Source: a virus (Duplodnaviria > Heunggongvirae > Uroviricota > Caudoviricetes). From it: a stretch of DNA of 64,000 nucleotides. Position 1 is the first letter of the stretch; each line of letters opens with the position of its first letter. The position numbers and the translations under genes are program-made. Of this stretch, positions 3,309-36,308 are shown piece after piece. Where the stretch lies: the IMG/VR virus record IMGVR_UViG_2939127364_000001; one strand, given 5' to 3'. The notes under the pieces are model-generated. The model had not been told where the DNA came from. It was given only the letters and a program-made list of their open reading frames with translations, and searched no databases.

Positions 3309-3370
3309 AAAAGACCTGCTTCCGTATATATTTAATAAGTTACTTATTATTTATATATACAGAAACAGGC
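3309..3370. repeat. Palindromic AT-rich element, copy 1 (50 bp identical to 35954..36003)
   Basis: cctgcttccgtatatatttaataagttacttattatttatatatacagaa at 3315..3364 is identical to 35954..36003; the AT-rich core is itself near-palindromic. Confidence 0.6.
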
Positions 3371-3480
3371 ATAACTTGTCGTCTTAGACGCCCAGAAGCT
3401 CTACACTTTGAGCCTGTTAAATTGATTAAAAACTTATGTGTAAAATAGAACGCATTAGTCAGTAGCAAAGAGATGCAATA

Positions 3481-4248
3481 ATGGACGATTTATCGGTATA
3501 CGCGAGATCATTGGATAAGGCTAAATACTATGTTTACTGTCTCTATGATACAGAAGACAAGATGAAAAGACCGTTTTACATAGGAAAAGGCAAATCGACT
3601 CGTTGTCTCGATCACATCAAGTATCCCGATGACTCTCCCAAATCCATGCGGATCAAAGAACTTTTGGCTAATAAAAAATTAGGCATAGATATACTTCGTC
3701 ATGGTATGGATGAAACCACAGCCAAACTTGTTGAGGCGACATGCATCGACCTTATGGGGGTCGGAGAGCTTACGAATAAGGTACGAGGAAGTGGTTCCAT
3801 GATGGGCAGAATATCACTGGACGCCTACCATCACTTAGTGCTGCAAGAGGAAACTGAAATTGCTCCTGAGCACGCCGGTCTTGCCTTCCTGCTAAACAGC
3901 ACCTACAAGTCAGGAATGTCCGCTCTGGCATTATATGAAGCTACGCGTGGCGTATGGGCAAAGGTTCCAAGAGACGAGAATCTCAAATATGCCTACGCTA
4001 CATATGGTGGGCTGATAATGGAAGTTTATCAGATTGAATGCTGGGTCAAAGCCGGTTCTCAGCAGTACTTTACAAGGGATATAGCTCTTGGCCCCGACAC
4101 AAAACGTTATGAATTTGTTGGCAGAATAGCCGATGAGCATATTAGAAAACTGTATGTAGGCAAATTAATCAAGAAGCCACCAAGCTACGGTAGCCCTTTT
4201 GTGAAGGTTGGGGTGGTTAGGACTGAACATAGTGTTAGCGCGGCATAA
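3481..4248 (+). CDS. GIY-YIG domain nuclease (free-standing, possible homing endonuclease)
   Basis: 255 aa; N-terminus YVYCLYD-(10)-PFYIGKGKSTRCLDH matches the GIY...YIG...R signature; own transcription unit on the opposite strand to its neighbours. Confidence 0.6.
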   Translation: MDDLSVYARSLDKAKYYVYCLYDTEDKMKRPFYIGKGKSTRCLDHIKYPDDSPKSMRIKELLANKKLGIDILRHGMDETTAKLVEATCIDLMGVGELTNKVRGSGSMMGRISLDAYHHLVLQEETEIAPEHAGLAFLLNSTYKSGMSALALYEATRGVWAKVPRDENLKYAYATYGGLIMEVYQIECWVKAGSQQYFTRDIALGPDTKRYEFVGRIADEHIRKLYVGKLIKKPPSYGSPFVKVGVVRTEHSVSAA

Positions 4249-4264
4249 AGCTGACACTGTAGTT

Positions 4265-4302
4265 ATGCATTGGCGCAATGTACGCGCCAATGCATGATTT
4301 TT
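4265..4302 (+). terminator. Strong hairpin terminator at convergent junction
   Basis: 12-bp perfect stem atgcattggcgc / gcgccaatgcat with a 7-nt loop, followed by gattttt. Confidence 0.6.
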
Positions 4303-4660
4303 AACCTTTCTTCATCAACTCGCGTTTAATTTCATCGGTACGCATCGTGACATCGGCAGCAGTGATCGCCTCGTTCAGCTTCACGATGTCCTCGATTTCC
4401 TGCGGTGTCTTCTCCGCAAGATGGAAAATAGCAGCACGAATCACATCAGAGCGGGTGAATTTCTCAAAGCGAGGGATGAACTTCATCATCTCCAGCAGTT
4501 CGAAGTATTCGTCTTCCAGTGACATTGTGCGGCTTTTGATTTTCTCTTTGCCACGAGTCGGGCGTCCCTGTGGTCTGACTGGTTGGCGCAAAGGAGTTGT
4601 GTTCTTAGCCGGTGCATCAGGCTCTTTGCGCTTTGCTAGGTCTCCCATTCTCATGGACAT
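4301..4660 (-). CDS. Small partition partner protein (ParG/RHH-like centromere-binding candidate)
   Basis: 119 aa, basic N-terminus, immediately downstream of and overlapping parA by 1 nt. Confidence 0.45.
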   Translation of the reverse strand: MSMRMGDLAKRKEPDAPAKNTTPLRQPVRPQGRPTRGKEKIKSRTMSLEDEYFELLEMMKFIPRFEKFTRSDVIRAAIFHLAEKTPQEIEDIVKLNEAITAADVTMRTDEIKRELMKKG

Positions 4661-5325
4661 TATTCTTCCTCCAGACTCAAGATGTAATCTACAAACTCTT
4701 CGAACTCGGCTTCTGCCTTCTTATCGCGTTCAGCGCCAGTCATTTCAAAGATAGAACGACCTGCCTCTTCCGCATCGTCATAAACGTTACGGTTGTACAG
4801 GTTAACCGGCGCAGCCTCGATGCCGAAAGTTTCGACAATTTCCTTCGCGGCCAGAATACGTGATACCTGGGAAGGCAATGACGGACACTGGTTTATTACC
4901 GCGCGGATCTTAACTTTCTCGTTCACATTGCGAACGTTGTCGATAATCGGGTCGATATCACGCAGAGATTTCAAATCACGACGTTTAGGGCGCAGCGGGA
5001 TGATGATTACATCAGCCATAAGCATCGCCAGACGCTGAATTTCGGAGTCAAAGCCACCAGCATCTACCACTACAAACTCAGCTCTACCCTGAAGCGATTT
5101 TAGGTGCTTAATGATGTCATCCTGAACGTATGCAAAAGGAATCAGCTCAAGGTCTTCGTTCTGTCGACGGTCTTCACACCAGCTCGTTGTCGTGCGCTGA
5201 ATATCTATATCGGTAATATAAACCTTCTTCTTCTTTTTGACTTTCAGGCAAACGGCAATTTGCTGGGCAACGGTGGATTTGCCAGGCCCGCCCTTTGTGC
5301 CGCCAACCACAAAGATCTTGGTCAT
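4660..5325 (-). CDS. parA: ParA-family partition ATPase (small type Ib-like)
   Basis: 221 aa; deviant Walker A GGTKGGPGKST at the N-terminus; motif A 36 nt upstream. Confidence 0.75.
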   Translation of the reverse strand: MTKIFVVGGTKGGPGKSTVAQQIAVCLKVKKKKKVYITDIDIQRTTTSWCEDRRQNEDLELIPFAYVQDDIIKHLKSLQGRAEFVVVDAGGFDSEIQRLAMLMADVIIIPLRPKRRDLKSLRDIDPIIDNVRNVNEKVKIRAVINQCPSLPSQVSRILAAKEIVETFGIEAAPVNLYNRNVYDDAEEAGRSIFEMTGAERDKKAEAEFEEFVDYILSLEEE

Positions 5326-5360
5326 TGGAGAGTTCCCTTTGCGTATATAATTATCGTCTG

Positions 5361-5376
5361 AAACAACTTGTTTTCT
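5361..5376. promoter_or_regulatory. Motif A upstream of parA
   Basis: aaacaacttgttttct. Confidence 0.4.
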
Positions 5377-5604
5377 TATATGTGATATAGCCTAAATGCC
5401 TACGGCTGCGGTGTAAAGGTTAAATGGTAGGTTGTGATTAACAATTGGCAATCATAGCTTGTATTTGTCTGTTGAAAAAAGTAACAATGACCTCTATATT
5501 ACAAGTACGGTGATATGCCGTACACAATTTGATAATGCACACGTAATGGGCTATAGCCTTTTAAAGTAATTTTTGAGTCGAAAACTCAGTTTGAACAGAG
5601 GAGA

Positions 5605-5913
5605 TTGATGGCCTTCCTACATCACGGCCATCAGGAGGAATACATGTCAGCACTAAAAAAGCAGCGCATCGATTTGAGATTAACCGATGACGATAAAAGC
5701 ATCATCGAGGAAGCTGCCGCAATGTCTAACCAGAGCATTACTCAGTTTATGGTTAGCAGTGCATCTGAACGTGCCGTGAAAGTTATAGAGCAACACCGTA
5801 GACTAGTTCTGAATGAAGAATCCTGGAATCTGGTTATGGACGCTATAAGCAATCCTCCGGCACCGAACGACAAGCTGAAACGAGCTGCTGATCGTCTGAA
5901 AAGCATGGAGTAG
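5605..5913 (+). CDS. DUF1778-type RHH antitoxin (AtaR/TacA-like)
   Basis: About 90-102 aa, ...KKQRIDLRLTDDDKSIIEEAA..., directly upstream of and 8 nt from a GNAT toxin-like gene; true start may be the internal ATG near 5644. Confidence 0.6.
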   Translation: MMAFLHHGHQEEYMSALKKQRIDLRLTDDDKSIIEEAAAMSNQSITQFMVSSASERAVKVIEQHRRLVLNEESWNLVMDAISNPPAPNDKLKRAADRLKSME

Positions 5914-5920
5914 TTTACTC

Positions 5921-6442
5921 GTGAGCAATACAACGATAGAGATTTTCTCTGGAGAGAAAGATTATGATCTAAACGGTTTTGATTGCGGCGAAGAGTCACT
6001 AAACGCCTTTTTAGCCAACCACTTAAAAAGGCAGCATGAGGGAAAAATTCTTCGTGCTTATGTGCTTTGCACTCAAGAAGAAAGGCCAAAAGTGTTAGGA
6101 TATTACACTTTGTCAGGTAGTTGTTTTGAAAAGGAGTCCTTACCTTCAAGAAGCAAACAAAAGAAGGTTCCTTATCGGAATGTTCCAAGTGTTACTTTGG
6201 GTAGGCTGGCTTTGGACAAGTCCCTTCAAGGTCAAGGATTTGGCTCAATGCTTGTAACACATGCAATGCGCGTTGTGTACAATGCATCTCTTGCTGTAGG
6301 CATTCATGGACTTTTCGTTGAGGCGTTAAATGACAAAGCCAAGGCGTTTTATAAAAGTTTAGACTTTATCCAGCTGGTTGGTAACAACGAGCGTTCTTTG
6401 TTCTATCCTACAAAATCTATCGAAAAATTGTTCGAAGAATAA
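5921..6442 (+). CDS. GNAT-family acetyltransferase toxin (AtaT/TacT-like)
   Basis: 173 aa, GTG start; GNAT core LGRLALDKSLQGQGFGSMLV; classic antitoxin-then-toxin arrangement. Confidence 0.65.
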   Translation: MSNTTIEIFSGEKDYDLNGFDCGEESLNAFLANHLKRQHEGKILRAYVLCTQEERPKVLGYYTLSGSCFEKESLPSRSKQKKVPYRNVPSVTLGRLALDKSLQGQGFGSMLVTHAMRVVYNASLAVGIHGLFVEALNDKAKAFYKSLDFIQLVGNNERSLFYPTKSIEKLFEE

Positions 6443-6445
6443 TGT

Positions 6446-6467
6446 GTTCCCCTCATTTGAGGGGAAC
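6446..6467. terminator. Bidirectional hairpin between convergent toxin gene and lysis-like cassette
   Basis: gttcccctc-attt-gaggggaac, perfect 9-bp stem. Confidence 0.4.
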
Positions 6468-6610
6468 TTCGACATCACCAACCACAAACCCTCTCTCCCA
6501 TCGTATTGTGAAAAAGGATTTGGCGTTCGGTTTCTTCAGTCATTACATCATTATTGCTGATATAGATAGGCTCAGCCCCATCGCAGAACAACACGCTGGT
6601 GGTTTGTGGT

Positions 6611-6862
6611 TTAATGACGCACCCACTTATCATACAACTCACGATGAACGGCAGAAGCATCTTTCTGACGTATTTTACTGCTCGTCTCATTCACCACTTT
6701 CACTGTGTTTTGAAGTCGTTTTCTGTCTTCCTGTTTTGCCTTCTCTTCCATTGCTCGTCGCGCCGCATTCCCGCCCATCGTGTAAGCGCCGACAAAAACG
6801 AAAAGAACGGCAGCCAGCGTAATCAAAGCAACTTTTAGCTTTGTCATCAGGCTGCCTAGCAT
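6611..6862 (-). CDS. Small membrane protein with N-terminal TM segment and charged coiled-coil tail (spanin/holin-like candidate)
   Basis: 83 aa; hydrophobic LKVALITLAAVLFVFVGAYT followed by KAKQEDRKRLQ. Confidence 0.4.
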   Translation of the reverse strand: MLGSLMTKLKVALITLAAVLFVFVGAYTMGGNAARRAMEEKAKQEDRKRLQNTVKVVNETSSKIRQKDASAVHRELYDKWVRH

Positions 6863-6863
6863 A

Positions 6864-7583
6864 TTAGACCATCCCTTTCTGGTGTCTTCTTACCTGCGAC
6901 CAGGCAATGAATCCGGCCACAACAATAGTGGCAATGCCGAAGATGATGCGTACTGTATCCCCGCTAGAGATATGACCTTGTGCCTTATCCATAGCAGCGG
7001 AAACCTGCGGCATAACATCGGCCAGCTGCGCCAGACCAATACCTGCTGTAACAGTTGCGCCTGCGGTTTCTTTAGTTACAGGAACAGCCTTCACGGTTTT
7101 CACCGGCTTAACAACGCCAGCTCGACGCAGACCTTCCTCAATAACTTCTGCCGCATACCAGGTGTTCAGCGTTTTTAGCGGGCCTCGGCCATTCTCGTGG
7201 CGAATGATTGCCTCAACCAAAGGTCGAAGGATGTCGTAATCATGCAGATCGATGATCATGTCTGCGGTTACACCAACGGCTTTAGACACCTCATTAATGT
7301 AGGCGTCAGTATTGTTTTCATTCGGCGGTGCCCAGCGTTCAATAACTTCACGAATGGTATCGATACTTGTGCCGTCTTTTGCGCGACGTTTATCGTGGTA
7401 GGTAATTAGAGTCACCGCCAGCGCACGAATCCCCCAAACAGGGTCTTTAAACGTGCAAAAGCGCGGTTCGTCTGGATTCGCAACCAGACCTTGCCACGGT
7501 GATCCTTTATCAAGATTACCGGGGTTATTATTACGAATGCCTCTCGGGGTCTTCATCCTTGATCTCCTGTTATTGCAGTCCAC
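6864..7583 (-). CDS. Hypothetical protein with C-terminal TM anchor (possible cell-wall-active or lysis protein; family not recognised)
   Basis: 239 aa; N-terminal RGIRNNNPGNLDKGSPWQG motif, C-terminal hydrophobic IIFGIATIVVAGFIAW; likely true start at internal ATG ~7556. Confidence 0.45.
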   Translation of the reverse strand: MDCNNRRSRMKTPRGIRNNNPGNLDKGSPWQGLVANPDEPRFCTFKDPVWGIRALAVTLITYHDKRRAKDGTSIDTIREVIERWAPPNENNTDAYINEVSKAVGVTADMIIDLHDYDILRPLVEAIIRHENGRGPLKTLNTWYAAEVIEEGLRRAGVVKPVKTVKAVPVTKETAGATVTAGIGLAQLADVMPQVSAAMDKAQGHISSGDTVRIIFGIATIVVAGFIAWSQVRRHQKGMV

Positions 7584-7905
7584 TTTTTACGCCATACGCG
7601 GCTAACCCCAAAAGCAGTGCGGTAATAATGAACGACGTTATTTTAGAAACAATGCCGCCAAAGAACCCACTTGAGATGGAATCTAACCGGTTAAGGAGTT
7701 TGTCCAGATTGGAGTGTTGAATACTATGTTGCGCCGGGGTCATATCACCAAAGTAGGTTTTCAGCTGATCATTGACCTCCTGGCCAATTTCTTCACGTAG
7801 CTCTTTACCTAATTTGCCAACAACCTCCCGAGCAACGATCGCGGCAATACGCTCAACTTGCTCTGTTGTAACGCCCGCCATCTCGTTCGACATGTTTTCC
7901 TCCAT
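7570..7905 (-). CDS. Small protein with C-terminal TM segment (holin-like candidate)
   Basis: 111 aa; C-terminus KITSFIITALLLGLAAYGV. Confidence 0.45.
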   Translation of the reverse strand: MEENMSNEMAGVTTEQVERIAAIVAREVVGKLGKELREEIGQEVNDQLKTYFGDMTPAQHSIQHSNLDKLLNRLDSISSGFFGGIVSKITSFIITALLLGLAAYGVKSGLQ

Positions 7906-7923
7906 GAAAAGTCAAATCGGGAT

Positions 7924-7947
7924 GGCGGTTTTATATCATAAAACGCC
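7924..7947 (-). terminator. Hairpin after the tail fibre genes
   Basis: ggcggtttta-tatca-taaaacgcc; on the - strand followed by a U-rich stretch. Confidence 0.35.
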
Positions 7948-7956
7948 CACACTTGG

Positions 7957-7976
7957 TAGGTAAGTACTTACACATG
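7957..7976. promoter_or_regulatory. Motif B, perfect palindrome GTAAGTACTTAC
   Basis: ggtaggtaagtacttacaca, overlapping the stop of the Gly-rich protein gene. Confidence 0.35.
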
Positions 7977-8813
7977 AGCGCCGTAAATTGCCCCAGCTTT
8001 AGTCCATGTAGGCGCGTTGCCAGTTACGGCTTTACCAGCTGCCCCGCCGCCGTACATTGTCCCCAATCGTCCAGTAGCAGCAGCACCAGCGGCACCTACA
8101 TTACCTCCACTGCCGCATGTGTATTGAACAGCGGTAGAGCCGATCAAATATTGAGCACCAATCCCGGGAGCGGTTAGAGTGCCAGAAGTTGCCGCACGCG
8201 AAGTTGAAGCTGGCGGCCTTGTAGTGTTTGCAACACCAAACGGGCGACCGCCACCACCCATACCACCATCGGCTGAGTTACCGCCGCCACCACCGCCACC
8301 ACCGGCAATAGCGCCGTTATTGGTTATTCTTAAACGAGTCCCAATCCCGTTGTTAATAGCAGTGCCACCGGCAGCACCGCCACCTTTAACGCCACCATTA
8401 CCGCCACGGCCATAGACAGTTACACCTGCGTTGATTACAAGGCTGATATAAGAGTTGGTAAGTGAACTCGGGAAATCTAAACATGGCACGCCGCTACTGG
8501 ACGACACCAGATCCCCTGTAATGGTAACAACGACTGGCGTCGCCCCCTGGGATTTTAAATAGTTGATCAGTGTGTCTTTGTTGTAGTTATGATTCGCACC
8601 GATGCTGTACTGAACTTCTTTAGATCGCCCGGCCATTTGAGACATTGAACCAGCCGCTGGCAGTTGCACCGCCGTTCGAGCCGCACTCATCCATCTCTGG
8701 CCTGTCACACTGACAGCCGAAGACCCAATCCAACCGGGAACACCGACAATTGGCACATCTAATCTCCTTTTTGATGTGAATATCCTGAATTGGTGAGGGT
8801 GGCCCCTCACCAT
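7968..8813 (-). CDS. Glycine-rich tail-fibre-associated protein
   Basis: Gly-rich runs (GGGGGGGG, GGNGGVKGGGAAGG); immediately downstream of the long tail fibre gene; probable GTG start near 8756 after an AGGAG site. Confidence 0.5.
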   Translation of the reverse strand: MVRGHPHQFRIFTSKRRLDVPIVGVPGWIGSSAVSVTGQRWMSAARTAVQLPAAGSMSQMAGRSKEVQYSIGANHNYNKDTLINYLKSQGATPVVVTITGDLVSSSSGVPCLDFPSSLTNSYISLVINAGVTVYGRGGNGGVKGGGAAGGTAINNGIGTRLRITNNGAIAGGGGGGGGNSADGGMGGGGRPFGVANTTRPPASTSRAATSGTLTAPGIGAQYLIGSTAVQYTCGSGGNVGAAGAAATGRLGTMYGGGAAGKAVTGNAPTWTKAGAIYGAHV

Positions 8814-8822
8814 TCACCTTGA

Positions 8823-11800
8823 TTACATTTTTGCCTTCAGTTCGCGCACTTCCTCGCGCAGCTCTTTGACAGCCTCGACCAACATGCCGATAACGCCGTT
8901 GTAGTTAAGACGCAGACGAGGCTCTCCTGACTGATCGTTATGGTCAACCGTTACCAGTTCAGGCTGAACATTCTGGACGTCCTGAGCGATGAGGCCGCCA
9001 GACTGCTCATAACGGCCACAGACCTGAATCTCGTAGAGAACACCTTCGATCTGCTCCAGCTTGTCGAGCGCCCGCTCAATTTTGCGAATATTGCGCTTAC
9101 TACGGCGGTCGGAACGGATGTAAACGTCGTTAAAGCTACCATTCCCACCACAAACCCAAGTGCCGTCATTTTGCAAATAAGCATTAGCATCAGTGCCATT
9201 ATCAGTACGTGAGTTGTTTATCATGTAAAAGCCGAATTGGCTGTTACCTAAACCACCAACAAAAAATTTCCTATCAGCATGGTCTTGTCTTAACAATGCC
9301 TGAGCAGAACTAGTTGATACCTGATTAAGACCAAAAATAACGTTTTGATCTCGCATGCTAATCCAAGAACCTGAGTTGCTGTTAATAGAAAACCTGTTTG
9401 CATATACCCAGGAATTGGTTTTTATATCTCCAGTAACGTTGACAGGCTTATTGCTTTGAACACTCCCACTCGTAAAGCGTAAAACTTGGGTGTTATTGGC
9501 GTAAACATCAAGAATGCCATCTCCATTTTGTTTTAATCCGGTATCGCTATCACCCAGAACAATTGAGTTCCCACCAAGACCATTGACCACACCCAGCCCA
9601 AGACCACCGTCAACAACAGCACCATTGCCCATTGCTACTCTGCCATTAGTGAGATTTACATAAAATGGACGAAGCGAACCTATATCACCATTTTCTCCCT
9701 GGTCTTTTGCTGTCGGGATAAGGTAAAAATTATTTTCGGAACGGCGAAAAATCATCCCGTATGCCGCATCGTAAATGCGCAACCCATCCGTAGAGCGGAT
9801 CTTAAGCTGTCCGGACATCGTACCGCCGCTGTTTTTCATAAATAGCGCATCAATCCAGCCTGCAAATCCCGACTTATTAATGTATAAATTTCCATCATTT
9901 GCCAGAATGCCTCCACCTTGCGTCTTGAGGGGCTGACTCACATTTTGCAGCGTCAGCACACCAGTCATTGTTCCGCCAGAAATCGGTAACGCACCGACAT
10001 CAGCCGCTGTGGGTTTATGAGCAGTGGTATAGACCTGCGCCCAACCAGACCAATTCGCTGTCGAAGTATCACGGCGTGAACGAACATAAACCGGTGCATG
10101 AGCACCATTCGTTCCGCTCCAGCCAATAAGCAACTCGCCCTCACCAGCAGCACTCGCACCTTTCATGTGCAATACGTTGCCATACGTGGTCGGGTAGCTA
10201 TTGTTGTACGCCTCATACATTTGAATGCCAGCAGTGCCTTGAGTAGAGCCACTTAACGCCGTTACGGGCCCGCGTGATACCAATGTATTAATGTTGATAT
10301 CGCCTGAGCCATCAAACTTAACACCATTGATGTTTCTAGCAGTTTGCAACTTCGTAGCTGTTGAAGCATTACCGTTCAAGCTACCATTGATGCCGCCAGT
10401 AACATTGAGTCCATTACCAATGGACACAGCACCGCTGGTATTATTAATTGTAATCGGTCGCAAACCGTTCCATGAACCTAATGTGTCTCCTGATGCTGTT
10501 AGCATGAAATATGTGTTCGACCCATCATTACGGATAAAGAACCCAAAGCTACCGTAAGCAATGCGGAAACCATTTGCATATTTTGAAATGATCTCGCCAG
10601 AAGATGTCAAACCTCCAGATAATGTCCCACCGGTAAGAGGTAATGCACCAACGTCAGATGCTGTTGGTTTATTTTTCGTGTTATATACTCTTCGCCATCC
10701 TGGAGAATAATCTGTGCCATTAAATACATAGATAAACTCCGCATTAGTGAGAGCACCAGAGACACTCGTCGTTGTGGCCGTTGTTATACGGATCGTATAA
10801 TTGTTTGAGCTACTACCGTTATTAAATACCTCTATAACAGCTCCTGCCAATGGAATAACGCCACAACCAGTTTCACTATTTGGTATGGTTGCACTATTGG
10901 CATAGGCCCACGCACATCGAGCAATCCATGACCTTGTGGTAAACGCGCCGTTATTTTGCAATAACGTCACTAACTGTGCTGTTGTTATTGCTCCGCCATT
11001 ACTTCCTGTAGTTAACCAACCAGTAGGAGATGCCGGGCAACCTATATCGGCAGGCCCCAACGATATATTTCTTGTGCCATCAAACGCAATACCGTTGATG
11101 GTTCTTGCGGTTTGCAACTTCGTAGCAGTAGCCGCGTTGCCCGTTGTATTCTGATTACCAGTCGTATTAACACCTGGCAAATTAATATTCGCAGTACCAT
11201 CAAAGCTCACGCCGCCGATAGTTCTTGCCGTCTGAAGTTTTGTAGCAGTTGCAGCATTACCAGTGGTGTTCTGATTACCCGTAGTATTTACACCTGGAAG
11301 GTTGATATTTGCAGAACCGTCGAAACCAACTCCACCGATAGATCTTGCCGTCTGCAATTTCGTTGCTGTACTTGCATTACCATTTAATGTTCCGGTGATC
11401 CCACCAGTAACAGACAACGGACCTGAAACTGTTCCTCCGGTTGTTGGCAGTGCTCCAATATCTAACGGCGTCGGTTTCTGATGTGTGCTATACATCGTAT
11501 AAACAACACCATCGGTAACGCTGGAAGGCTTACTCGCTGAATATGTTGGCGATGTATAAATAGAAACTGTCGCATTTGCAGTACAATCCCAATGGATATT
11601 TACACGAGTCGCATAATTGCCAATCTCAACGTAAATATCATATGTATCGCCGGATGTGTTGATCCAGGCGAAATTCGTTAATCCGACAGCTGTACGCTTC
11701 CACAAAGCACCTGTAATCCCTTTGGGGTTTCCATTGCCTGCTCGTAGAACCAGTTCTGAAATACCTGCCTGATGTGGGGAGCCAACGTTAAACCCTGCGC

Positions 11801-13562: not shown

Positions 13563-16500
13563 TCACAGACGGCCAATTCTTACTCGTAAGACGTTGTTAT
13601 CGTCATAAACGTCAATCCGCTGACCATTTATAACCAATCGCCCATTGCCGCCGCTATTACCGTTGATCTCAAGCGTTCCATTTTTGCCGAACCGCCATCC
13701 AGATCTACCGCTAACAAAATTGGTAGATTGCAGATCGCCTACTTTTGCATTGGTGATTGTGCCATCCTTGATATACGCTCCATTCATATAGGCGATACTG
13801 TTTTCGATAACAAATGGCGTTGTGATCTTCCCGTTAACAGAGTTGACCAAACCAAACCTGTCCGCCTGAACCAAAAACTGAGATAGCCCAGTGGTGTCAA
13901 TACCAAGCGCAATACCGGCAACATACTTCTGACCTCCGCTCGTTGAAGTCTCCATTTTCAACGTCCACGCGGTTGACACTTTTTTGTTGGTATCAGCAAT
14001 AGCTGTTGCCTGCTGTTGAATTGTCGCGGTATTTCCATCCACCTCTGCTTTCAGAGTATCGATTCGCCCACTCAGAGCATTATCTGCCTGCGTTCTCGCT
14101 GTCGTTTCAGTTGTTACCGCCGCGGAAATGTTGGCTGCCGTTTGAGACTCTAAGTTTGTGATTTGAGTCGCCAATGCAGCATCTTGGTCTGTACGCGTTT
14201 TCGTTTCGGTTGCTACAGCCGCTTTAATATCCTCTTTGTATTGAGAGGTCAGCTTGGTGATCTGAGACGACAACGCCGAGTCAGCATCAGTTCGAGCCTG
14301 CGTTTCAACTGCAACGGCCGCACTAATATCTTTCGCTGTCTGTGCTTTTAAATTTGAAACCTCTTTTGTTAAAGCGGTATCACCATCTGCACGAGCCGTT
14401 GTTTCTCTGGCAAGAGACGCCTCGAGATCATTAGCTTTTGCTGTAAGAGACGTAATCTGGGTAGACAATGCACTATCGGCATCAGTCCTTGCTTTTGTCT
14501 CTACAGCAACCGCTGCGGCAATATCAGTTCCGGTTTGTGCTCGCAGGCTGTTAATTTCTCGTGAGAGCGCCTGGTCAGCACTTGCTCTGGCCTCCTGCTC
14601 CTGAGTGATGGCAGCGGATATATCACCGTCAACCTTTGACTGAAGCTGGTTTATTTGTTTGGCTAACGCAGAGTCCCCGCTTGCTCGGGCCTCCTGCTCA
14701 CTACGTATTGCAGCAGAAATATCATCATCAACCTTTGCCTGAAGTTGGGTGATCTGGCTTGCCAGAGCCGAATCTTCCGTTGCTCGGGCTTCTTGCTCTT
14801 CCTTAATAGCTGCGACGATATCGTTGCTTACTTTCGACTCAAGCTGAGTGATCTGTGTCGTCAGAGCTTCATCGGCAGATGTACGAGCCTCCTGCTCTGT
14901 ACTAATCGCCGCGCTGATATCTCCTTCAAACTTAGATTGCAGCTGAGTGACACGCTTTGCCAACGCTTCATCGCCATCGGCACGAGCGGTGGACTCTTCC
15001 AGAATACTGGCCTTAATGTCTTCGCCAATTTCTACGCGAATTTCCTCAACCTTCGTGGCCATTGCAGACATATCATCAGCAAAGGTTTTCTGTGTTGTTG
15101 CGATCTTCGCGTTATTGACCATCTGCTTGTGCTGGTCTTCATCTTGACGAAGAGCCAGGTCAATATTTGTTTTGGCTAACGCCTCAATGTTCGTAGTCAG
15201 TTCTGCACTTGCACGATCGACCTCTGCAACCGTCTTTTTCATTTCTTCAACGGCAGCGGAGCTTTCCTCTACCGTTGACTGCAACACTTCCAGTTGTTTA
15301 GCGTTTGCAGCATCGCCTTCAACACGAGCCTCGCTTTCCTTAGCAATAAGAGCCGCCGCTTCATCTCTTGCAGCCTTTATTGCCTCGACTGTATTAGCGA
15401 GAGCTTTATCGTGTTCAGATACGGTGTTTTCGATTTCAACAATTGCAGCATCAGTAGCATCAATTTTTTCAAACGCTTCATTGACCTTGTCGATCGTTGC
15501 CGAAACCTCACCTTTAAGCTCGGTTTGTGCGTTCTCCAAAGCATCGCTACGCTCGTTGAATTTTATTTCAAAATCCGCGAGGTTATCGCTGAACTGCTTA
15601 TCTAATTCAGCTATATCTTCCTTAACGTCGTTTACCGCCCCCTCCAAAGATTCGACGCTCTGGTTGATATGCTCATTTAACTCGTCAACTGCTTCTTGAG
15701 AGGCTTTGCTGTTGATGTCCTCAAGCAGAGCCTGACCAAGCTCGGAAGATGTAATTTTGCCAGTCAGGAACGACAGTACATCGCGAGTTGTCGCCTCTGT
15801 ACCCAAGTTTGAGTTCGGAGGACTTAACATACCTCGCTTGTTCGATGCTCGAACCCAGTAATACCACGTTTCACTATCCCCAAGACCAGCATGTGTAAAG
15901 GTGGTGCTTGCAGACTCTGCGATCAGTTTCGCCGTATCCAGATTGTTGGTCTGGGATGCGTAAACATTAATGTGATCAAGGTCTACCGAATCTGGATTAA
16001 CCCAATTCAGTATCACATTACGATAGTCTCCAACGGCCGTTAATGACGTTGGTGCATCCGGCGGTGTCATTGTGCCCAGCACCTGATAAACGGTACTGAT
16101 AATTTCTGTTTTTTTACCGTTGAATGAAACCGCATACAGTTGGAAGTCGTAGCGTCCATTCTCCGCGACATTAACAATTTCGTATTGCTCTTCGGTTACA
16201 CGCGCCGATTGCCAGTTCGATATATTGTTTTCATCAGAACGTCGCCAACTGATCCAATACTCTGGAGATTTCCCTTCCCATGTTGCAGTCAGTTTTACTG
16301 ACAGGTTGCCAGGGCTTGAGAGATAAGTCCCTTCGGTGATTTGCAAATTAGACGGCTTGGAGTAAGTCGGGTCCAATACCGTCGTATTCTGCGGGATAAG
16401 CGTTGCACCATTGTCGATCGCCTCATATTTAGACGGATTGTTCTCAACAGCGGTGATGTCAAAGCTACCCGGCGTTTCCCCCTGCGCGATGTTAACGATG

Positions 16501-26100: not shown

Positions 26101-26122
26101 AGAGGCCCATCCATGGGCCTCT
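26101..26122 (-). terminator. Hairpin after major tail protein gene
   Basis: agaggccca-tcca-tgggcctct, 9-bp stem; weak U-tract. Confidence 0.35.
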
Positions 26123-26136
26123 TGGGTTATCACAAT

Positions 26137-26883: not shown

Positions 26884-26923
26884 TGATGGAAAACTCCTTT
26901 TTCCGTTAATTCTACGCATTCAT

Positions 26924-26940
26924 TGCGCTAATAGTAAGTA
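26924..26940. promoter_or_regulatory. Motif B, perfect palindrome TAAGTATATACTTA
   Basis: agtaagtatatacttac, ~45 nt upstream of the major tail gene start. Confidence 0.35.
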
Positions 26941-26957
26941 TATACTTACCAATTGAG

Positions 26958-27314: not shown

Positions 27315-27342
27315 CAAACTTGCAAACGCTTCAATAAACACA

Positions 27343-29498: not shown

Positions 29499-29542
29499 AA
29501 CGCATTCTCTCTACATGGGCGGCTTTCGCCGCCCAATATTGA

Positions 29543-30463: not shown

Positions 30464-30473
30464 TTCTCGCTCC

Positions 30474-30505
30474 TACAAAAAGGGTGGGCGTATAGCCCAC
30501 CCTTT
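30474..30505 (-). terminator. Rho-independent terminator after major capsid gene (probably leaky)
   Basis: aagggtgggc-tatac-gcccaccctt followed by TTTTTG in - sense; the next gene's SD and ATG follow immediately. Confidence 0.55.
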
Positions 30506-30510
30506 AACAT

Positions 30511-30526
30511 AGATAATTACTTATCT
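30511..30526. promoter_or_regulatory. Motif B-like palindrome between capsid stop and terminator
   Basis: agataattacttatct. Confidence 0.3.
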
Positions 30527-30536
30527 ACTGCACTGA

Positions 30537-31412
30537 TTAAATTTTTACATTGGTCAGTGCAGCGATAGCCTTATCGTGCTTATTCGCCAGAGAGCAGTAC
30601 CACTTCACACGGGTACGTACTGCGTCTTTGTTCTGTACAGTGCCAATGTTTTCAACAACGATACCTGCGTTGTCGCCGCCATACAGACCAGTAACGCCGT
30701 TCTCTTCTGACAGATGCAGGCAGTAGATGCTTGCTTTGCCAGAATCGGTCGGGATGAAGTCGTTGATGATGAACGGAACGCCGTTATGACACAGCATCGG
30801 ACGACCGAAGTTCTCCATCATGATTTCAGACGGGCCTACGTTTACTGTACGCAGCAGCGCACGGTAAGCACGCAGGTGCTCTGAACGCATCATGATGCAG
30901 TCAGCACCAAGATCTTTCACCGCATCGACCAGTTCGTCGAACATAGAGAAAGTCATAGATGCACCGGCGATATCGATCTTCTGATCTGCGTGCATCAGGC
31001 GTGGAATGCCGTCAAACGCCTTGTTGTTGGAGCTGGAGTCACCCAAAATCAGGTTGCGACGGAACGCACGAGCCAGACCTTTAACTTTCTGACGAACCTG
31101 AATAGCCAACTGGTTGTTGGTGTCGGCCATAGTGGTCGCCAGGAATTTATCAACGTCTACGTCACCAGCCAGAATACGCAGTTTCGCAACGCATTCTTCG
31201 AAGGTTGCTGCACCTTCAGGGATGGTGTCGTTAACGTCGATGAAGGTAGCTTCACTCAGCGTTTTTTCACGGTTGTACAGATATGCCTTTGAATTAATTT
31301 TCATAAAAGGCAGGATGGCAAACAGGTCATCGCGATCAATGATAGTTTCGATCACACCCTGTTCGAGTTCGTTGTTAGACAGCTTTTCAGCTTCTTCACG
31401 CAGTAATGGCAT
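30537..31412 (-). CDS. Major capsid protein (candidate)
   Basis: 291 aa, follows the scaffold-like gene and precedes a terminator; size and context. Confidence 0.6.
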   Translation of the reverse strand: MPLLREEAEKLSNNELEQGVIETIIDRDDLFAILPFMKINSKAYLYNREKTLSEATFIDVNDTIPEGAATFEECVAKLRILAGDVDVDKFLATTMADTNNQLAIQVRQKVKGLARAFRRNLILGDSSSNNKAFDGIPRLMHADQKIDIAGASMTFSMFDELVDAVKDLGADCIMMRSEHLRAYRALLRTVNVGPSEIMMENFGRPMLCHNGVPFIINDFIPTDSGKASIYCLHLSEENGVTGLYGGDNAGIVVENIGTVQNKDAVRTRVKWYCSLANKHDKAIAALTNVKI

Positions 31413-31437
31413 CTATCAATTCCCTTTGATTTAGATG

Positions 31438-32325
31438 TTACTTAAGTCCAATTTTCCCCAGACCGGAGGCCAACTTATCCATAGTCGACTTGTTCTTCGG
31501 TTGGGATATTGTGTAGGTCGATTTGGAATGTGAGCCTACACCCTGCTTGGCTTCGCTACGCATCAATGCGTCAGCTTCCGGATCTGCCCGCACAATGCGT
31601 TCAATCGCGGATTCAAACGGCAACGGCTTACCTTCACCGTCAACCAGAACAGTTCGTTCTTTATGACCTGCCGGTTTGTCATAACCCACTACGCTACCGT
31701 CTTCACCCACTTCAAAATGAGAACCGTAGATCACGCGGGCTTTTGCCGGAGTCATCAGAACTTTGTCACGTAGGAAGAGAGAGTTACTGAAGGAAGCGCC
31801 CACGGTCATCTCGACTAATTGAGATTTCAGTGATGCGTTTTCACTTTCCAGTGCTGCATAACGTTCGTCACGCTGTGCCAGCTCTGCCTGGTGTGCTTCG
31901 ATCATCTGTTTTTTAACAGCATCGAACTCACCACGACGCTCCAGTTCAGCTTGCTCCGCCTCACGACGTGCGTTTTCTGCGGCCTGTTCAGCTTCTAAAA
32001 GCTGGCGAGCACGCGCCGGGTCGATGTCACCGTACTGAGCAAGCTGATCGGTCAATGTGCGCTCTTTCTCTTTGCGCTTCATGTTCTCTTTCAGCAGTTC
32101 AGCACCAGCTTTCTTGGTTTTGCGAAGTTCGGCCAGTAACTCTTCATGAGTCATGCCAGCGTATTCGTCATCACCCTTCGGCTGCTCTTTTTGTTCACCC
32201 TGTTTGTCAGGATCTTGTGTACTCTGCTCATTATCAGCAGCTACACCGCCAGCGCCTCCACGCTCATGCGCTTCAGCAACATCCATCAGACCACGACGGG
32301 CCAAAAGCATTTGCCACAGTTGCAT
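31438..32325 (-). CDS. Scaffold protein (candidate)
   Basis: 295 aa, highly charged coiled-coil (...ELLKENMKRKEKERTLTDQLAQ...AEQAAENARREAEQAELERR...), between portal and capsid genes. Confidence 0.55.
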   Translation of the reverse strand: MQLWQMLLARRGLMDVAEAHERGGAGGVAADNEQSTQDPDKQGEQKEQPKGDDEYAGMTHEELLAELRKTKKAGAELLKENMKRKEKERTLTDQLAQYGDIDPARARQLLEAEQAAENARREAEQAELERRGEFDAVKKQMIEAHQAELAQRDERYAALESENASLKSQLVEMTVGASFSNSLFLRDKVLMTPAKARVIYGSHFEVGEDGSVVGYDKPAGHKERTVLVDGEGKPLPFESAIERIVRADPEADALMRSEAKQGVGSHSKSTYTISQPKNKSTMDKLASGLGKIGLK

Positions 32326-32346
32326 AAAAATTCCCTTTGTTACTTA

Positions 32347-33921
32347 TCACTCGTTCTCTTGAGTAGATGAGTCCCCATTCCCTCGGGGTTGATCTTGCCC
32401 GCTTTCTTGGGCTGCACCTTGATCATAAGTAAGCACTGACTTATTTTCAAGGGTATTTAGATCATTTTTTGGCGGAAAATTCAAGAGATCTTTATCAAAT
32501 TCCTTTTTCATCGCCTCAGTAATGTTCGGGAAAATCTTCTCAATAAGCATTTCCATCTGGTGACGACGTACAGAGTCCGGTGCCTGAAGTAATGACAGTT
32601 TCTCGGCAACAGAAAATTCATCTGTAAGGCCACGAATATCGAAACTTTCTGGATACGCAATTAAAGAGTGGTCTTCGTCCAGATCTGCCCCCATCCATTT
32701 CGCAACCAGTAGCATGATTTGGCGTTCAGCCCTTTCCAGACGCTCTGCTTTTGTGACAAGCAAGCTATTTACACGCTGGAAGTCATACATTTTTGCGGCA
32801 CCAGATGAATTATCGATTCCCTGTGCGTTGTCCTGCTTCGTTCGCTCACCAGCTACACCAACTGAATGGTAGATTTCGTTAATCACCGTCTTAATCGTAG
32901 TGATGATCATCTGAGCTTGTTTCGGGTCTGGTGACAGATAAAACGGCTGGTTTCCACCTTCAGAATCGTAGGTGAAGACTCGCTTTGTGCCCATTTCAAG
33001 CACTTTAGTGTGGTTTTCATCACCAGGTAAAAGCGACTGTACCGGTATAGCCAACTGGCTAAATGTCTGATCCTGAATAATGGCATCAAGGTTTGACAGA
33101 TAGTTTGCAACCGCACGATCAAGATAAGCGATATCATCGATCAACGATGGGCTGAAATACGGTGATTCACTTTCTCCAATACAATCAACAGGAAACACAG
33201 GAACTACGCCGAGATTATGCTCACCGCTATCCTCTAAAATAACTTTTGCCTGACGGCGACCTGCTCCACCAGCGCCCTTCTTCACTTCCTCACGGAACAG
33301 ATACCACTCGTTTTGTGTCCACAGACGATAACGTTGGTATTCCTGACCTGTAGAAGTAAAAGGATCTGCGTCATCACGAGCGACTTCCACAATTAACGCC
33401 CACAACATATTCCCGTCGTCGTCCCATGCCACATCCAGCATTTGCTGAGGTGAAATCCAGTAGGCGTAGGCGCGAGCATCTTTCTTTTTCTCGTCAGCTA
33501 CTGACTCAACATCACCACTCATCGTGCTATCGACAACAACCCATATGCGACCGTAAATAGACGACTGCAAATCAATAGCGGCCATAAATGAGTCAATAGA
33601 GGCATTCTGGCGAGTCGCACGTTTCCAGAAATTGCGGATCTGCTCTGGTGCCTCTTCGATATTTCTATGAATGTCTTCTTTAAAGAGATATTTGTTGATG
33701 AGGTTTACCACCTCACGAGTGTGGTTGAAGCGATAAGCACGTTCAACTCGCTCCTTAAACTCCTGATCTCCCTCTTTAAAGTAACGAAAGATATTGTCTG
33801 TAAACCAACCACGCCCGCCAGCGTAAGTGCTGGCGAGGAAGTCCCAATGTTCTTTTTTCTTTTCGTATTCCGGGTGGCGTCGCGCCACCAGATCCTTAAT
33901 TTGTTTGTCGTTCAATTCCAT
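32347..33921 (-). CDS. Portal protein
   Basis: 524 aa, immediately downstream of the large terminase. Confidence 0.75.
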   Translation of the reverse strand: MELNDKQIKDLVARRHPEYEKKKEHWDFLASTYAGGRGWFTDNIFRYFKEGDQEFKERVERAYRFNHTREVVNLINKYLFKEDIHRNIEEAPEQIRNFWKRATRQNASIDSFMAAIDLQSSIYGRIWVVVDSTMSGDVESVADEKKKDARAYAYWISPQQMLDVAWDDDGNMLWALIVEVARDDADPFTSTGQEYQRYRLWTQNEWYLFREEVKKGAGGAGRRQAKVILEDSGEHNLGVVPVFPVDCIGESESPYFSPSLIDDIAYLDRAVANYLSNLDAIIQDQTFSQLAIPVQSLLPGDENHTKVLEMGTKRVFTYDSEGGNQPFYLSPDPKQAQMIITTIKTVINEIYHSVGVAGERTKQDNAQGIDNSSGAAKMYDFQRVNSLLVTKAERLERAERQIMLLVAKWMGADLDEDHSLIAYPESFDIRGLTDEFSVAEKLSLLQAPDSVRRHQMEMLIEKIFPNITEAMKKEFDKDLLNFPPKNDLNTLENKSVLTYDQGAAQESGQDQPRGNGDSSTQENE

Positions 33922-33932
33922 TTGAATAACCT

Positions 33933-33952
33933 TAGATAATTACTTACCTATC
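33933..33952. promoter_or_regulatory. Motif B-like site at the terminase/portal junction
   Basis: tagataattacttacctatc, overlapping the terL stop and the portal SD. Confidence 0.3.
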
Positions 33953-35204
33953 GAGAACCACCAAGAATAACACGGTTTTTGACTGGATACCTACGATGTA
34001 CTGGATAGCCCAATGCGTCTGCACTATGCTCAATGCCACCTGTCTTATCCATATCTCGTGTTCCAGGCTTGTAGATGACTTTTTCCAGTGAATCAATCAA
34101 ATGCTTGCACTTCGGATCGATATACAGCCGGATATCTCCAGATGCGGTCATCAGCATTCGGTTAACAGCATTAACACGATCCGCAATTGGCGGGTGCTTT
34201 TTCGAATAATCGACACGTAAGAATCCCTTCTCTTTGAATATGTCGACGTCAGACTCCCCGCGAGCATGTTGGCGATAAGCACCTGCCGGATCTGGAAATA
34301 CCGTTATCTGTGATTTCCAGCGCCAGAAGCGTCTCTCAAGCTCATCACAAACCTCTGCCGTGTTAGAGGAAAAGAGCACCAATTCATCAATTGCCCATAG
34401 CTCACCATTTGGCTGAGGTTGCAAAATTACTGAAGACATCGGGTCAATGTTGAAGTCCTGCCCTACCCATATAGGCAACCGAGGGTTGAACTGAAGCGGT
34501 TTTACATGCACGTTACGATCGAACGGGTAGTAAACGCGCCCGGACATGTTCTCAAAGCTCGCCAGGTACTCCTGAGCGAACGATTTCGGGTCCATATCGT
34601 TCTTAGCAGCTTCAATTTCCGCCGTAGGTACAAACGGAGAATCGGCAGTTACAAACTGCCAGCTCTTCCACTGTCCCTTTCTTTGCAGCTCTACGTTCTG
34701 GCCTATCGTCCACAGTTTGTGAAATTCCGAGAAGCCTTTTGGCGTACCAATGATCAGTGCACCGCCGCGTGTCGATGAAAGAGTAGGTCGTAACACCTTG
34801 TACCAGGTGTCAGCCTTCATATCCTGAAATTCATCAAGCACTACAAAATGCAACGCTACGCCGCGCAGAGTGTCAGGCTTATCAGCACCTTTGAGGGCGA
34901 TCTCCGAACCGTTCTTCAACACGATTGTCATCGTGGTGTCGTTCTTTTTCCTAACCCACTTACGAGGCAGAACTTCCTGTAGATCGTCCCACAAAATCTG
35001 GCGAGCCATCTGGTAAGTAGGAGCGACATACCAGACCCTTTGCTTTTTTTCCTTTGCCGCCGCACGAATAATAGTGGAGATCGACAACCGGGATTTTCCC
35101 CAGCGTCGACCAGCACAAACAACTTTAAATCGATGCGGAGACTGGAAGACTTTCATCTGTCCAGAATGCAGTTGCACAAGACTGAGCGAGGACGGGATTG
35201 CCAT
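33948..35204 (-). CDS. Terminase large subunit
   Basis: 418 aa; N-terminal Walker A VVCAGRRWGKS; C-terminal acidic nuclease-like region. Confidence 0.85.
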   Translation of the reverse strand: MAIPSSLSLVQLHSGQMKVFQSPHRFKVVCAGRRWGKSRLSISTIIRAAAKEKKQRVWYVAPTYQMARQILWDDLQEVLPRKWVRKKNDTTMTIVLKNGSEIALKGADKPDTLRGVALHFVVLDEFQDMKADTWYKVLRPTLSSTRGGALIIGTPKGFSEFHKLWTIGQNVELQRKGQWKSWQFVTADSPFVPTAEIEAAKNDMDPKSFAQEYLASFENMSGRVYYPFDRNVHVKPLQFNPRLPIWVGQDFNIDPMSSVILQPQPNGELWAIDELVLFSSNTAEVCDELERRFWRWKSQITVFPDPAGAYRQHARGESDVDIFKEKGFLRVDYSKKHPPIADRVNAVNRMLMTASGDIRLYIDPKCKHLIDSLEKVIYKPGTRDMDKTGGIEHSADALGYPVHRRYPVKNRVILGGSR

Positions 35205-35836
35205 TATTCGTCCTCCCCTTCACTTCCATCATCTGTCGCATCAAATTCGCTTAGAGCTTCTTCTTCCAACGTCTCAAGCAATTCGTCATCGATGATTTCA
35301 GGCTCGTCGTCTTCCTGACGTAATTTCGCCACCTGGGAAGGCGTAAGCTCACCAAATACCAGGTTCGGAATTTCTTCCTCGTCATTTTCCGCATGATCCA
35401 TGCCCAATGCTTTGGACGAAACTTCAAAGCATTTTGCAAGGGTATTACTGGCTCTCTGTAAGCTCTTGAGAGAATCCTCAATCGCCCCTAAAGGCTTACC
35501 CTCACGTTTGGCCGTAGTGACTTCGACCATCACCATCTGCCCCAACGCATACGCCCAGCCGTCATAACGTGTACGACGTTCTTCTATCTTTTCCGCACGG
35601 GCTTTAGCGCGAAGCTCTGCGTCAGATTTAAGAGACTCACGAACCATCTTCCCAACAGAGTCCGCGCCTTTCTCTAATCCTCGCTTTTTGAAATGTCTGG
35701 AGAGTGTTTCACGACGAATGCCGTACTCTTCCTCCAGCTTTGAGAGTGTATATTCGCCTGACGTCCATTTGGCTTCAGCTTCGGCCCACTCCGCTGGTGT
35801 CAGGCGAGTTTTTACCTCGTCTTTTTCGACCGTCAT
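35204..35836 (-). CDS. Terminase small subunit (candidate)
   Basis: 210 aa; N-terminal HTH-like YTLSKLEEEYGIRRETLSRHFKKRG, highly acidic C-terminus; overlaps terL by 1 nt. Confidence 0.55.
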   Translation of the reverse strand: MTVEKDEVKTRLTPAEWAEAEAKWTSGEYTLSKLEEEYGIRRETLSRHFKKRGLEKGADSVGKMVRESLKSDAELRAKARAEKIEERRTRYDGWAYALGQMVMVEVTTAKREGKPLGAIEDSLKSLQRASNTLAKCFEVSSKALGMDHAENDEEEIPNLVFGELTPSQVAKLRQEDDEPEIIDDELLETLEEEALSEFDATDDGSEGEDE

Positions 35837-35876
35837 AGATCCCTCTAAAACACACAGAGCGCGTCCATGCGCTCTA

Positions 35877-35917
35877 AAACAACTTGTTTACTGCATCTGC
35901 TAACCAACTTGTTTTCT
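35877..35917. promoter_or_regulatory. Two copies of motif A upstream of terS
   Basis: aaaacaacttgttta and aaccaacttgttttct; adjacent hairpin agagcgc-gtccat-gcgctct. Confidence 0.4.
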
Positions 35918-35950
35918 AGGTTGTTTAATTAGGTCTGGGCATGTCTTATT

Positions 35951-36013
35951 AAGCCTGCTTCCGTATATATTTAATAAGTTACTTATTATTTATATATACA
36001 GAAGCAGGTCTTT
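35951..36013. repeat. Palindromic AT-rich element, copy 2
   Basis: 35954..36003 identical to 3315..3364; flanked by a perfect 8-bp inverted repeat cctgcttc / gaagcagg. Confidence 0.6.
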
Positions 36014-36299: not shown

Positions 36300-36308
36300 G
36301 GCAAATCC

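Follow-up and report, generated by a model that had tools for sequence, protein, structure and literature searches.

A conserved 55-bp hairpin unit as a candidate transcription terminator or insulator at module borders of SSU5-type phage-plasmids

In T4-type phages, the promoter-early stem-loop (PeSL) cassettes are regulatory stem-loops that are repeated in intergenic regions at module borders and that recombine. Palindromes of a different kind, 13–16 bp long and bound by a known protein of the ParB family, are dispersed in N15 (the Sop sites) and in RK2 (the OB sites of KorB). The RNase III sites of the early genes of phage T7 have a characteristic internal loop. Phage-plasmids of the SSU5 type, for their part, carry resistance and cargo genes. 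How does a palindrome that is repeated within such a replicon compare with these systems? We address this question for a stretch of 64,000 nucleotides from a member of the Caudoviricetes (IMG/VR record IMGVR_UViG_2939127364_000001; "the window" denotes this whole stretch), which holds two nearly identical copies of a 55-bp palindromic unit. In our judgment, a modest balance of probability favors the view that these units are hairpin transcription terminators or insulators at module boundaries of phage-plasmids of the SSU5/pHCM2/pMT1 type.

The initial annotation reported an identical AT-rich element of 50 bp at two intergenic sites. The report was accurate: the 50-mer is exact at 3315–3364 and 35954–36003, on the plus strand in both cases, with 32 kb between the copies. 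With up to three mismatches allowed, the window contains no further match, and no match of any kind arose in 100 shuffles. Alignment and a repeat finder enlarge the repeat to a full unit of 55 bp in which 54 of 55 positions are identical, the sole difference being A3365 versus G36004; in the alignment, homology between the two neighborhoods ends at the unit edges.

3315..3369, minus strand: copy 1 of the hairpin unit, 55 nt (covariance model, 82.1 bits)
35954..36008, minus strand: copy 2 of the hairpin unit, 55 nt (covariance model, 84.6 bits)

The unit, with a GC content of 0.25–0.27, is an imperfect palindrome: 17-bp inverted arms (CCTGCTTCYGTATATAT / CCTGCTTCCGTATATAT, plus complement) enclose a 21-bp AT-rich center. 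On the minus strand the base of the hairpin is GC-rich, since its closing 9 bp (CCUGCUUCY/RGAAGCAGG) include five to six G-C pairs. The stem is unusually long (about 24 bp), and its upper part is AU-rich. Perfect 8-bp outer arms had been ascribed to copy 2, and they are present there (CCTGCTTC/GAAGCAGG); copy 1 has one mismatch at this place. Across lineages the length of the unit ranges from 51 to 57 bp through variation of the spacer. A search of the whole window with Rfam 15 returned no match at the gathering score, and a relaxed scan gave sub-threshold matches only, mostly to hairpins of microRNA precursors.

Both neighborhoods are 98–99% identical to Escherichia phage CMS-2020a (CP053388.1) and to PhiR41_1, 83–89% identical to Salmonella phage SSU5 and about 79% identical to Klebsiella phage-plasmids. 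From these identities, we assign the window to an SSU5-type phage-plasmid of Escherichia coli. The gene context given in the initial annotation was likewise right, with copy 1 between the replication genes and a GIY-YIG gene and copy 2 upstream of the terminase genes. On one side of copy 1 is an open reading frame (ORF) of 249 aa, followed by genes for a DnaB-like helicase and a primase; on the other is the GIY-YIG ORF, past which come a 119-aa ORF and a small ParA. Copy 2 is flanked by an 88-aa ORF, which ends an operon coding for two ParB_N-domain proteins and two ATPases, and on the opposite side by terS-like, terL and portal genes. All of these neighbors are carried on the minus strand, the GIY-YIG ORF being the sole exception. 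Pfam yielded no match for the 119-aa, 88-aa and 249-aa proteins or for the 210-aa terS-like protein, and sequence searches of the PDB with the first three gave nothing usable. A conserved operon (36033–39453, minus strand) immediately precedes copy 2 and the terminase genes; its products are two ParB_N-domain proteins, an ABC-type ATPase, an 84-aa protein, a 299-aa ATPase-like protein and the 88-aa protein, and an operon of this type is silent in the lysogen of the related phage-plasmid Cyrano.

When about 150 instances of the unit were extracted and oriented by the homology of their flanks, they fell into three sites that are the same across genomes. Copies 1 and 2 occupy sites 1 and 2; the third site lies outside the window:

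CP053388.1 91622–91676 (contig L146, 4623–4677): site 3, about 2.1 kb past the right edge of the window

Site 3 is flanked by a gene for an N6-adenine methyltransferase and an 84-aa ORF, and its center is a different one, AT-rich and non-palindromic. A half-site scan and the covariance model agree that CP053388.1 holds exactly three units, which are spaced about 33, 30 and 45 kb apart on its 107.6-kb circle. On the minus strand, the layout is common to all three sites: a stop codon, about 24 nt, the unit, 85–120 nt, and the next start codon. They also share an outer motif, KTCTGG...CCAGAM, in nearly all of the lineages sampled. As an independent genome-wide site, the motif GKTCTGGGAG was rejected: it had 5 matches against 4.6 expected and is thus not enriched. 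We propose that the units form a three-copy family of hairpins of about 55 nt, each of which would mark the 3' end of a minus-strand operon at a module border and would act mainly at the RNA level.

The features expected of a terminator are clearest at copy 1. In its sense (minus-strand) RNA, CCUGUUUCUGUAUAUAU...AUAUAUACGGAAGCAGG, the arms form 17 contiguous pairs, two of them G.U. The folding energy of the unit is -25.3 kcal/mol on the minus strand versus -15.5 kcal/mol on the plus strand. Three further features accompany this hairpin:

3304..3314, minus strand: U-rich tail directly 3' of the copy-1 hairpin, UCUUUUAAAAG (from the sequence)
3290..3297: left half of the copy-1 outer inverted motif, TGTTCTGG, which pairs with 3391–3398 in a 116-nt fold
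3391..3398: right half of the copy-1 outer inverted motif, CCCAGAAG

The outer motif of copy 1 (TTCTGG...CCAGAA) is weaker than the outer arms of copy 2. The sense tail at site 1 is T-rich in every lineage, with a mean of 5.5 T and a minimum of 4 T among the first 8 nt (17 unique flank pairs); examples are UCUUUUAA, which is the tail of copy 1, UCUUUUUC and UUUUUUCU. On the antisense side, the mean is 3.65 T per 8 nt (17 unique flank variants). The tail stays T-rich though the remaining flank diverges, and the 5' flank is not always complementary to it. Of the two strands, the sense one forms the more stable hairpin in 19 of 22 site-1 variants (means of -22.8 versus -18.6 kcal/mol). In relatives, the unit directly follows the partition/cargo operon; in the window, the antisense GIY-YIG cassette intervenes. 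Between copy 1 and the 249-aa gene is a conserved leader of 107 nt. This leader harbors a direct repeat, CTGGTGGCAGTTTTTGGAAG / CTGGTGGTGTCTTTTAAAAG, with a spacing of 41 bp (3253–3313), which may be a regulatory site for the replication operon.

Taken together, a long hairpin, a GC-rich base and an ensuing UCUUUU would make copy 1 a one-directional intrinsic terminator. It would end the partition/cargo operon, whose genes are transcribed in the lysogen, and would so shield the genes of lytic replication (249-aa protein, DnaB-like helicase, primase) from read-through of that operon.

Expression data from a relative bear on this proposal. In RNA sequencing (RNA-seq) of E. coli LF82, which carries Cyrano, the genes CYRAN_28, CYRAN_29 and CYRAN_30 average 49.8, 89.1 and 54.6 normalized counts, while CYRAN_31 has 6.2, compared with a background median of 9.8; under one of the conditions, the log2 value drops from 10.42 to 2.56 (PMC9928086, table S1). 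The first three are parA, the homolog of the 119-aa ORF and a cargo gene, and they are co-directional with CYRAN_31, the homolog of the 249-aa ORF. The 193-bp gap before CYRAN_31 holds the Cyrano unit with its UCUUUU tail. Expression thus drops across site 1 in this relative, and we infer that the hairpin itself causes the drop. As the Cyrano lysogen does not express the genes that flank sites 2 and 3, this dataset speaks to site 1 only. A bidirectional terminator had been one suggestion of the initial annotation, alongside a shared operator, a recombination site and a small mobile unit. Termination is the best supported of its options, given the position after operons, the sense U-tract of copy 1 and the RNA-seq drop in Cyrano; bidirectionality lacks support at copy 1, which has the tail CATAACTT on the antisense side and a hairpin that is weaker there by 10 kcal/mol, and at copy 2 the U-tract is weak on both strands.

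Copy 2 is a more elaborate structure. It begins 24 nt past the stop codon of the co-oriented 88-aa ORF (36033–36299, minus strand), and 117 nt separate it from the start of the terS-like ORF (35204–35836, minus strand). Its unit folds with -27.7 kcal/mol on the minus strand versus -22.2 kcal/mol on the plus strand, and it is embedded in a larger palindrome:

35932..36030: extended imperfect palindrome of 99 bp around copy 2, with outer arms GGTCTGGG.../...CTCCCAGACC and partly complementary linkers

The arms of this palindrome (35932–35970 and 35992–36030) are 39 nt each and 72% complementary, and a 113-nt minus-strand fold has an energy of -50.6 kcal/mol (z = -10). The outer arms are kept in Klebsiella, pMT1 and SSU5, and they are absent from Cronobacter-type relatives. 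The tails of copy 2 are CUUAAUAA on the minus strand and UCUUUAAA on the plus strand. In the proposed scheme, the same hairpin, here within a 99-nt palindrome, would close the ParB_N/ATPase operon, and the promoter region of the terminase (late) operon would follow just after it. Because it has no good U-tract, copy 2 is probably a weaker insulator, or else a hairpin for RNA 3'-end formation or processing.

Between copy 2 and terS there is another hairpin. It is GC-rich (35855–35876, minus strand; GAGCGCATGGACGCGCTC followed by UGUGUGUUUU), lies between the AAACAAnTTGTTT motifs described below and the terS ribosome-binding site, and differs between lineages by compensatory changes. Its appearance is that of an attenuator or terminator ahead of the late operon, which would imply control by antitermination.

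The position of copy 2 raises another possibility, namely that it is, or overlaps, the pac site of the terminase, with the other copies as secondary or pseudo sites. A location 117 nt upstream of a terS-like gene is the classical one for pac, the palindrome is longest at this copy, and TerL matches the T4-type families Terminase_6N/6C. These families usually accompany headful packaging. Moreover, the "linear" GenBank records of both SSU5 and Cyrano begin inside the copy-2 unit. Such a record break is equally well explained by an assembly break at a repeated palindrome, however, and the genome has three similar sites, two of which are far from the terminase genes; the latter point speaks against a cos site as well. 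Packaging would also leave the U-tract and the expression drop at site 1 unexplained, and we regard this idea as quite improbable. The records in question are SSU5 NC_018843/JQ965645 (L004 1–18, L005 2964–3000) and Cyrano OV696614. In both, the cut falls within the site-2 palindrome, following approximately unit position 37, and the element is consequently split in these reference genomes; the cut could be an assembly break at the palindrome or a real DNA end.

We surveyed the occurrence of the unit in several collections. It is present in 259 of 5426 complete E. coli genomes (~5%), where 1038 of 1040 occurrences are on plasmids (~105–115 kb) and two on chromosomes. In PLSDB, 799 plasmids have it (Klebsiella 313, Escherichia 236, Enterobacter 92, Yersinia 62 [pMT1], Salmonella 49), with matches in Citrobacter and Cronobacter besides. 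The INPHARED phage collection contributes 12 records, all in the SSU5 group. Pattern scans retrieved at least 120 IMG/VR stretches and real matches in genomes of Kluyvera, Buttiauxella and Y. pestis. The number of copies per replicon varies from one to four between lineages, and E. coli, Yersinia, Klebsiella and Cronobacter all have the same three sites. A large number of short-read contigs terminate at units. A search of the accessible literature found no paper that prints the unit sequence, and neither the LF82/Cyrano paper nor the main survey of phage-plasmids mentions such an element or gives virion ends. We conclude that the element is undescribed, yet of an ordinary kind.

This distribution bears on the proposals that the unit is a small mobile element resembling a miniature inverted-repeat transposable element (MITE) or a host repeat of the repetitive extragenic palindromic (REP) type. 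The former was an option of the initial annotation, and the latter was the finding that it named as refuting its view. Terminal inverted repeats, a copy number that differs between lineages and the identity of the copies in the window are what such an element might show. A mobile unit is nonetheless a poor fit: the same sites are occupied across genera, and the flanks have no target-site duplication. A host repeat is contradicted by the near-exclusive location of the E. coli occurrences on plasmids of the phage-plasmid type and by the restriction of the INPHARED matches to SSU5-group phages. The MITE/REP explanation is largely refuted, and we accord it next to no probability.

Why, then, are the two copies in the window so similar? 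The initial annotation attributed their identity to selection or recent copying, and both are borne out: conservation of the arms extends across genera, and the identical centers reflect a recent gene conversion. In SSU5-type genomes, the site-1 center (…CTTATTATTATTTATAC) differs from the site-2 center (…CTTATTAAATATATAC). In E. coli-type genomes, site 1 bears the site-2 sequence, with 55 of 55 positions identical in four contigs and 54 of 55 in the window. Some E. coli-type relatives keep the older, SSU5-type center at site 1; one of them (L031) has a flank that is 97% identical to that of the window. Site 1 was therefore recently overwritten by site 2, in a gene conversion of the E. coli lineage. 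In a separate lineage it is sites 2 and 3 that are nearly identical, which makes gene conversion between units a recurrent process. Copy 1 has since changed at one position only, from C to U at sense position 5, which yields a G.U pair in the sense RNA.

Exchange between units invites the question of whether they are primarily recombination substrates for the exchange of modules or cargo, in the manner of the PeSL cassettes; such a role would be compatible with termination. In comparisons of relatives, homology is lost precisely at 3369/3370, which is the upstream (sense 5') edge of the unit at site 1, and the cargo between the par operon and the unit varies there: the GIY-YIG cassette in the window, CYRAN_30 in Cyrano, SSU5_034–037 in SSU5, and no cargo at all in two IMG/VR contigs. 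In addition to the recurrent conversion, there are mosaic genomes in which site 1 is of the SSU5 type and site 2 of the E. coli type. The breakpoints are confined to one edge of one site, however, and both flanks of site 2 are conserved everywhere. A variable slot is to be expected upstream of a terminator anyway, because genes inserted there get expressed and terminated. Finally, there is no inversion or deletion between copies among the ~150 instances, and site-specific recombination between direct repeats, as the recombination site of the initial annotation would entail, would delete 32 kb. We therefore find recombination improbable as the primary function. One rearrangement that seemed to end at a unit (L107) was rejected, as a BLAST search with the whole locus placed the endpoint of the deletion about 180 bp inside the 249-aa gene. 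The window's own cassette (3370–4300) consists of the GIY-YIG (LEM-3-like) ORF on the plus strand with its own GC-rich terminator hairpin at 4262–4295.

Several observations weigh against a role as simple terminators, and we collect them here. A simple terminator scan called neither copy. The support from RNA-seq consists of per-gene counts from a relative at site 1 only, and a roadblock formed by a DNA-bound protein would give the same drop in expression. The site-2 U-tract is weak on both strands (lineage means of 2.9–3.2 T per 8 nt); at site 3, where the sense-strand tail is intermediate (4.2 T per 8 nt), the sense strand has no bias in stability. The arm pairs are relevant here as well. 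Among 50 unique variants, the non-Watson-Crick arm pairs in the sense orientation are G.U in 35 cases, A.C in 3 and others in 18, and fully compensated U9-A47 and U5-A51 units exist. This G.U excess and the compensated variants had been entertained as proof of RNA pairing, a claim that was downgraded after a shuffle control: the formal covariation test on the 50 unique units was not significant (122–185 of 500 shuffles do as well). Pair 9 occurs as UG (25), CG (14), UA (7) and CA (3), with C.A about as frequent as independence predicts. As the control gave no significance and the variants are phylogenetically related rather than independent, the wobble bias is supportive only. The arms, TATACGGAAGCAGG above all, are invariant across the three sites and across lineages whose flanks are 78–87% identical, and nine site-2 lineages with less than 95% identity all have the 3' arm ATATACGGAAGCAGG unchanged. 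In the same lineages, the GC hairpin that precedes the terS ribosome-binding site, some dozens of bases further downstream, covaries freely. The arms are therefore under a constraint on sequence that goes beyond pairing. Lastly, the outer KTCTGG...CCAGAM motif lies partly, with its 3' half, past the U-tract, where it has no role in simple termination.

One alternative is that the units would be sites in double-stranded DNA for a conserved protein encoded by the phage-plasmid: two 17-bp half-sites with a bendable AT-rich spacer and accessory outer motifs, serving as dispersed centromere-like sites or as roadblock or boundary sites, with termination as a by-product of the bound protein. In addition to the invariance of the arms and the retention of the outer motifs at all three sites, position 9 is a pyrimidine in both half-sites, without significant covariation. 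Sites 1 and 2 are immediately downstream of par-like operons (ParA and the 119-aa protein; the two ParB_N proteins and ATPases), the sites are spread around the circle, and there is no conventional repeat array upstream of parA, which had been sought as a centromere and was not found. On the other hand, variation of the spacer would rotate the half-sites relative to each other, and isolated half-sites do not occur elsewhere in the genome. The sense U-tract and the strand-biased stability at site 1 would be meaningless for a symmetric DNA site. No binding protein was found, and the neighboring small proteins have no fold recognizable by sequence. We consider such a protein site unlikely.

The invariant arms, the outer motif and the lack of a U-tract at copy 2 keep alive a broader alternative: the units may be sequence-specific cis sites for a putative factor, conserved across the SSU5/pHCM2/pMT1 supergroup, that sets module borders, with termination as only part of their function. 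Candidates for the factor are a centromere-like or boundary protein on the DNA, or an antiterminator or processing protein on the RNA hairpin. This alternative is doubtful in our estimation, if worth serious consideration. Were it true, the factor would separate the modules for plasmid maintenance, lytic replication and late functions and would thereby help the switch between the plasmid and phage lifestyles.

One more function was considered with regard to the AT-rich center. The units might be origins of lytic replication, with initiator boxes around an easily melted core; the inverted boxes do flank such a center, and copy 1 adjoins the helicase/primase module. A genome with three origins would be out of the ordinary, two of the units lie away from replication genes, the analysis found no initiator and the strand-specific features would be unaccounted for, all of which renders an origin very improbable. 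Other candidate sites were rejected. CTGTATAT-like half-sites in the arms of some variants recall a LexA box, but their spacing does not fit, and CCGT is what most lineages have. Inspection revealed no resemblance to the consensus sequences of IHF, dif, matS or Tus sites. A protelomerase target is at odds with related replicons that are deposited as circular (105–115 kb, with one to four units), though no dedicated search for a protelomerase gene was made.

The window contains other repeats. A second dispersed palindrome, AAACAAnTTGTTT, has 11 matches with up to one mismatch, compared with 0.62 expected:

2434, 5361, 35877, 35902, 45998, 47495, 48398, 48882, 50078, 51691, 51742: matches to AAACAAnTTGTTT

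The matches whose context was checked are upstream of genes (helicase, parA, terS), and the palindrome is probably an operator or promoter-associated site of a global regulator. At 14550–14945 there are four tandem copies of a 99-nt unit that are 62–72% identical to the reference copy. Two GC-rich, terminator-like hairpins (GCGCCCACTATGGGCGC followed by TTTT) are found 271 bp apart at 44603–44634 and 44874–44905. Two pairs of iteron-like 36-nt direct repeats (GGTAGCCTGG...GAGGTTGGT...TTTT) are located 3.85 kb apart at 46090–46153 and 49968–50034.

Phage-plasmids of the SSU5 type are common in clinical Enterobacteriaceae and include the types of Y. pestis pMT1 and S. Typhi pHCM2. How lytic genes are silenced beside expressed plasmid-maintenance genes is poorly known, and the element presents a concrete cis-acting border: copy 1 stands between the par/cargo operon, which is expressed, and the genes for lytic replication, and it delimits the slot in which cargo gathers. 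The main interest is in the combination of invariant arms with a place at the regulatory border between plasmid and phage; if the arms bind a factor, it would represent a new regulatory layer in phage-plasmids. The unit is also a practical marker, as short-read assemblies break at the repeat and the reference records of SSU5 and Cyrano are split by it.

Compared with known systems, the units most resemble intrinsic (Rho-independent) terminators, the long symmetric "bidirectional" kind included, in the terms of the preferred interpretation: a hairpin with a GC-rich base directly after an operon, an A-rich 5' flank, a U-tract at copy 1 and at site 3, and a drop in expression. They differ in the ~24-bp stem, in arm sequences that are kept across genera and paralogous sites, in the extra outer inverted motifs and in the want of a proper U-tract at copy 2. 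Like the PeSL cassettes, they are situated at module borders of a large phage genome, beside variable genes, and recombine between copies; unlike those cassettes, they number only three, have no evident promoter inside and are associated with breakpoints at one edge of one site. With the Sop and KorB sites they have in common a small set of conserved palindromes around a phage-plasmid, two of them downstream of par-like operons, yet here the palindrome is 55 bp, its spacer varies in length and the flanks bear strand-specific terminator features. REP elements, bacterial interspersed mosaic elements (BIMEs) and enterobacterial repetitive intergenic consensus (ERIC) sequences are also transcribed intergenic imperfect palindromes at operon ends that undergo concerted evolution, whereas the present units are chromosomal in just 2 of 1040 cases, occur one to four times per replicon in a single phage-plasmid supergroup and are unrelated in sequence. 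Finally, the T7 RNase III hairpins are long, intergenic and part of polycistronic phage transcripts, and copy 2, which would form an imperfect duplex of about 45 bp, is like them in this respect; the T7 sites differ by their characteristic internal loop.

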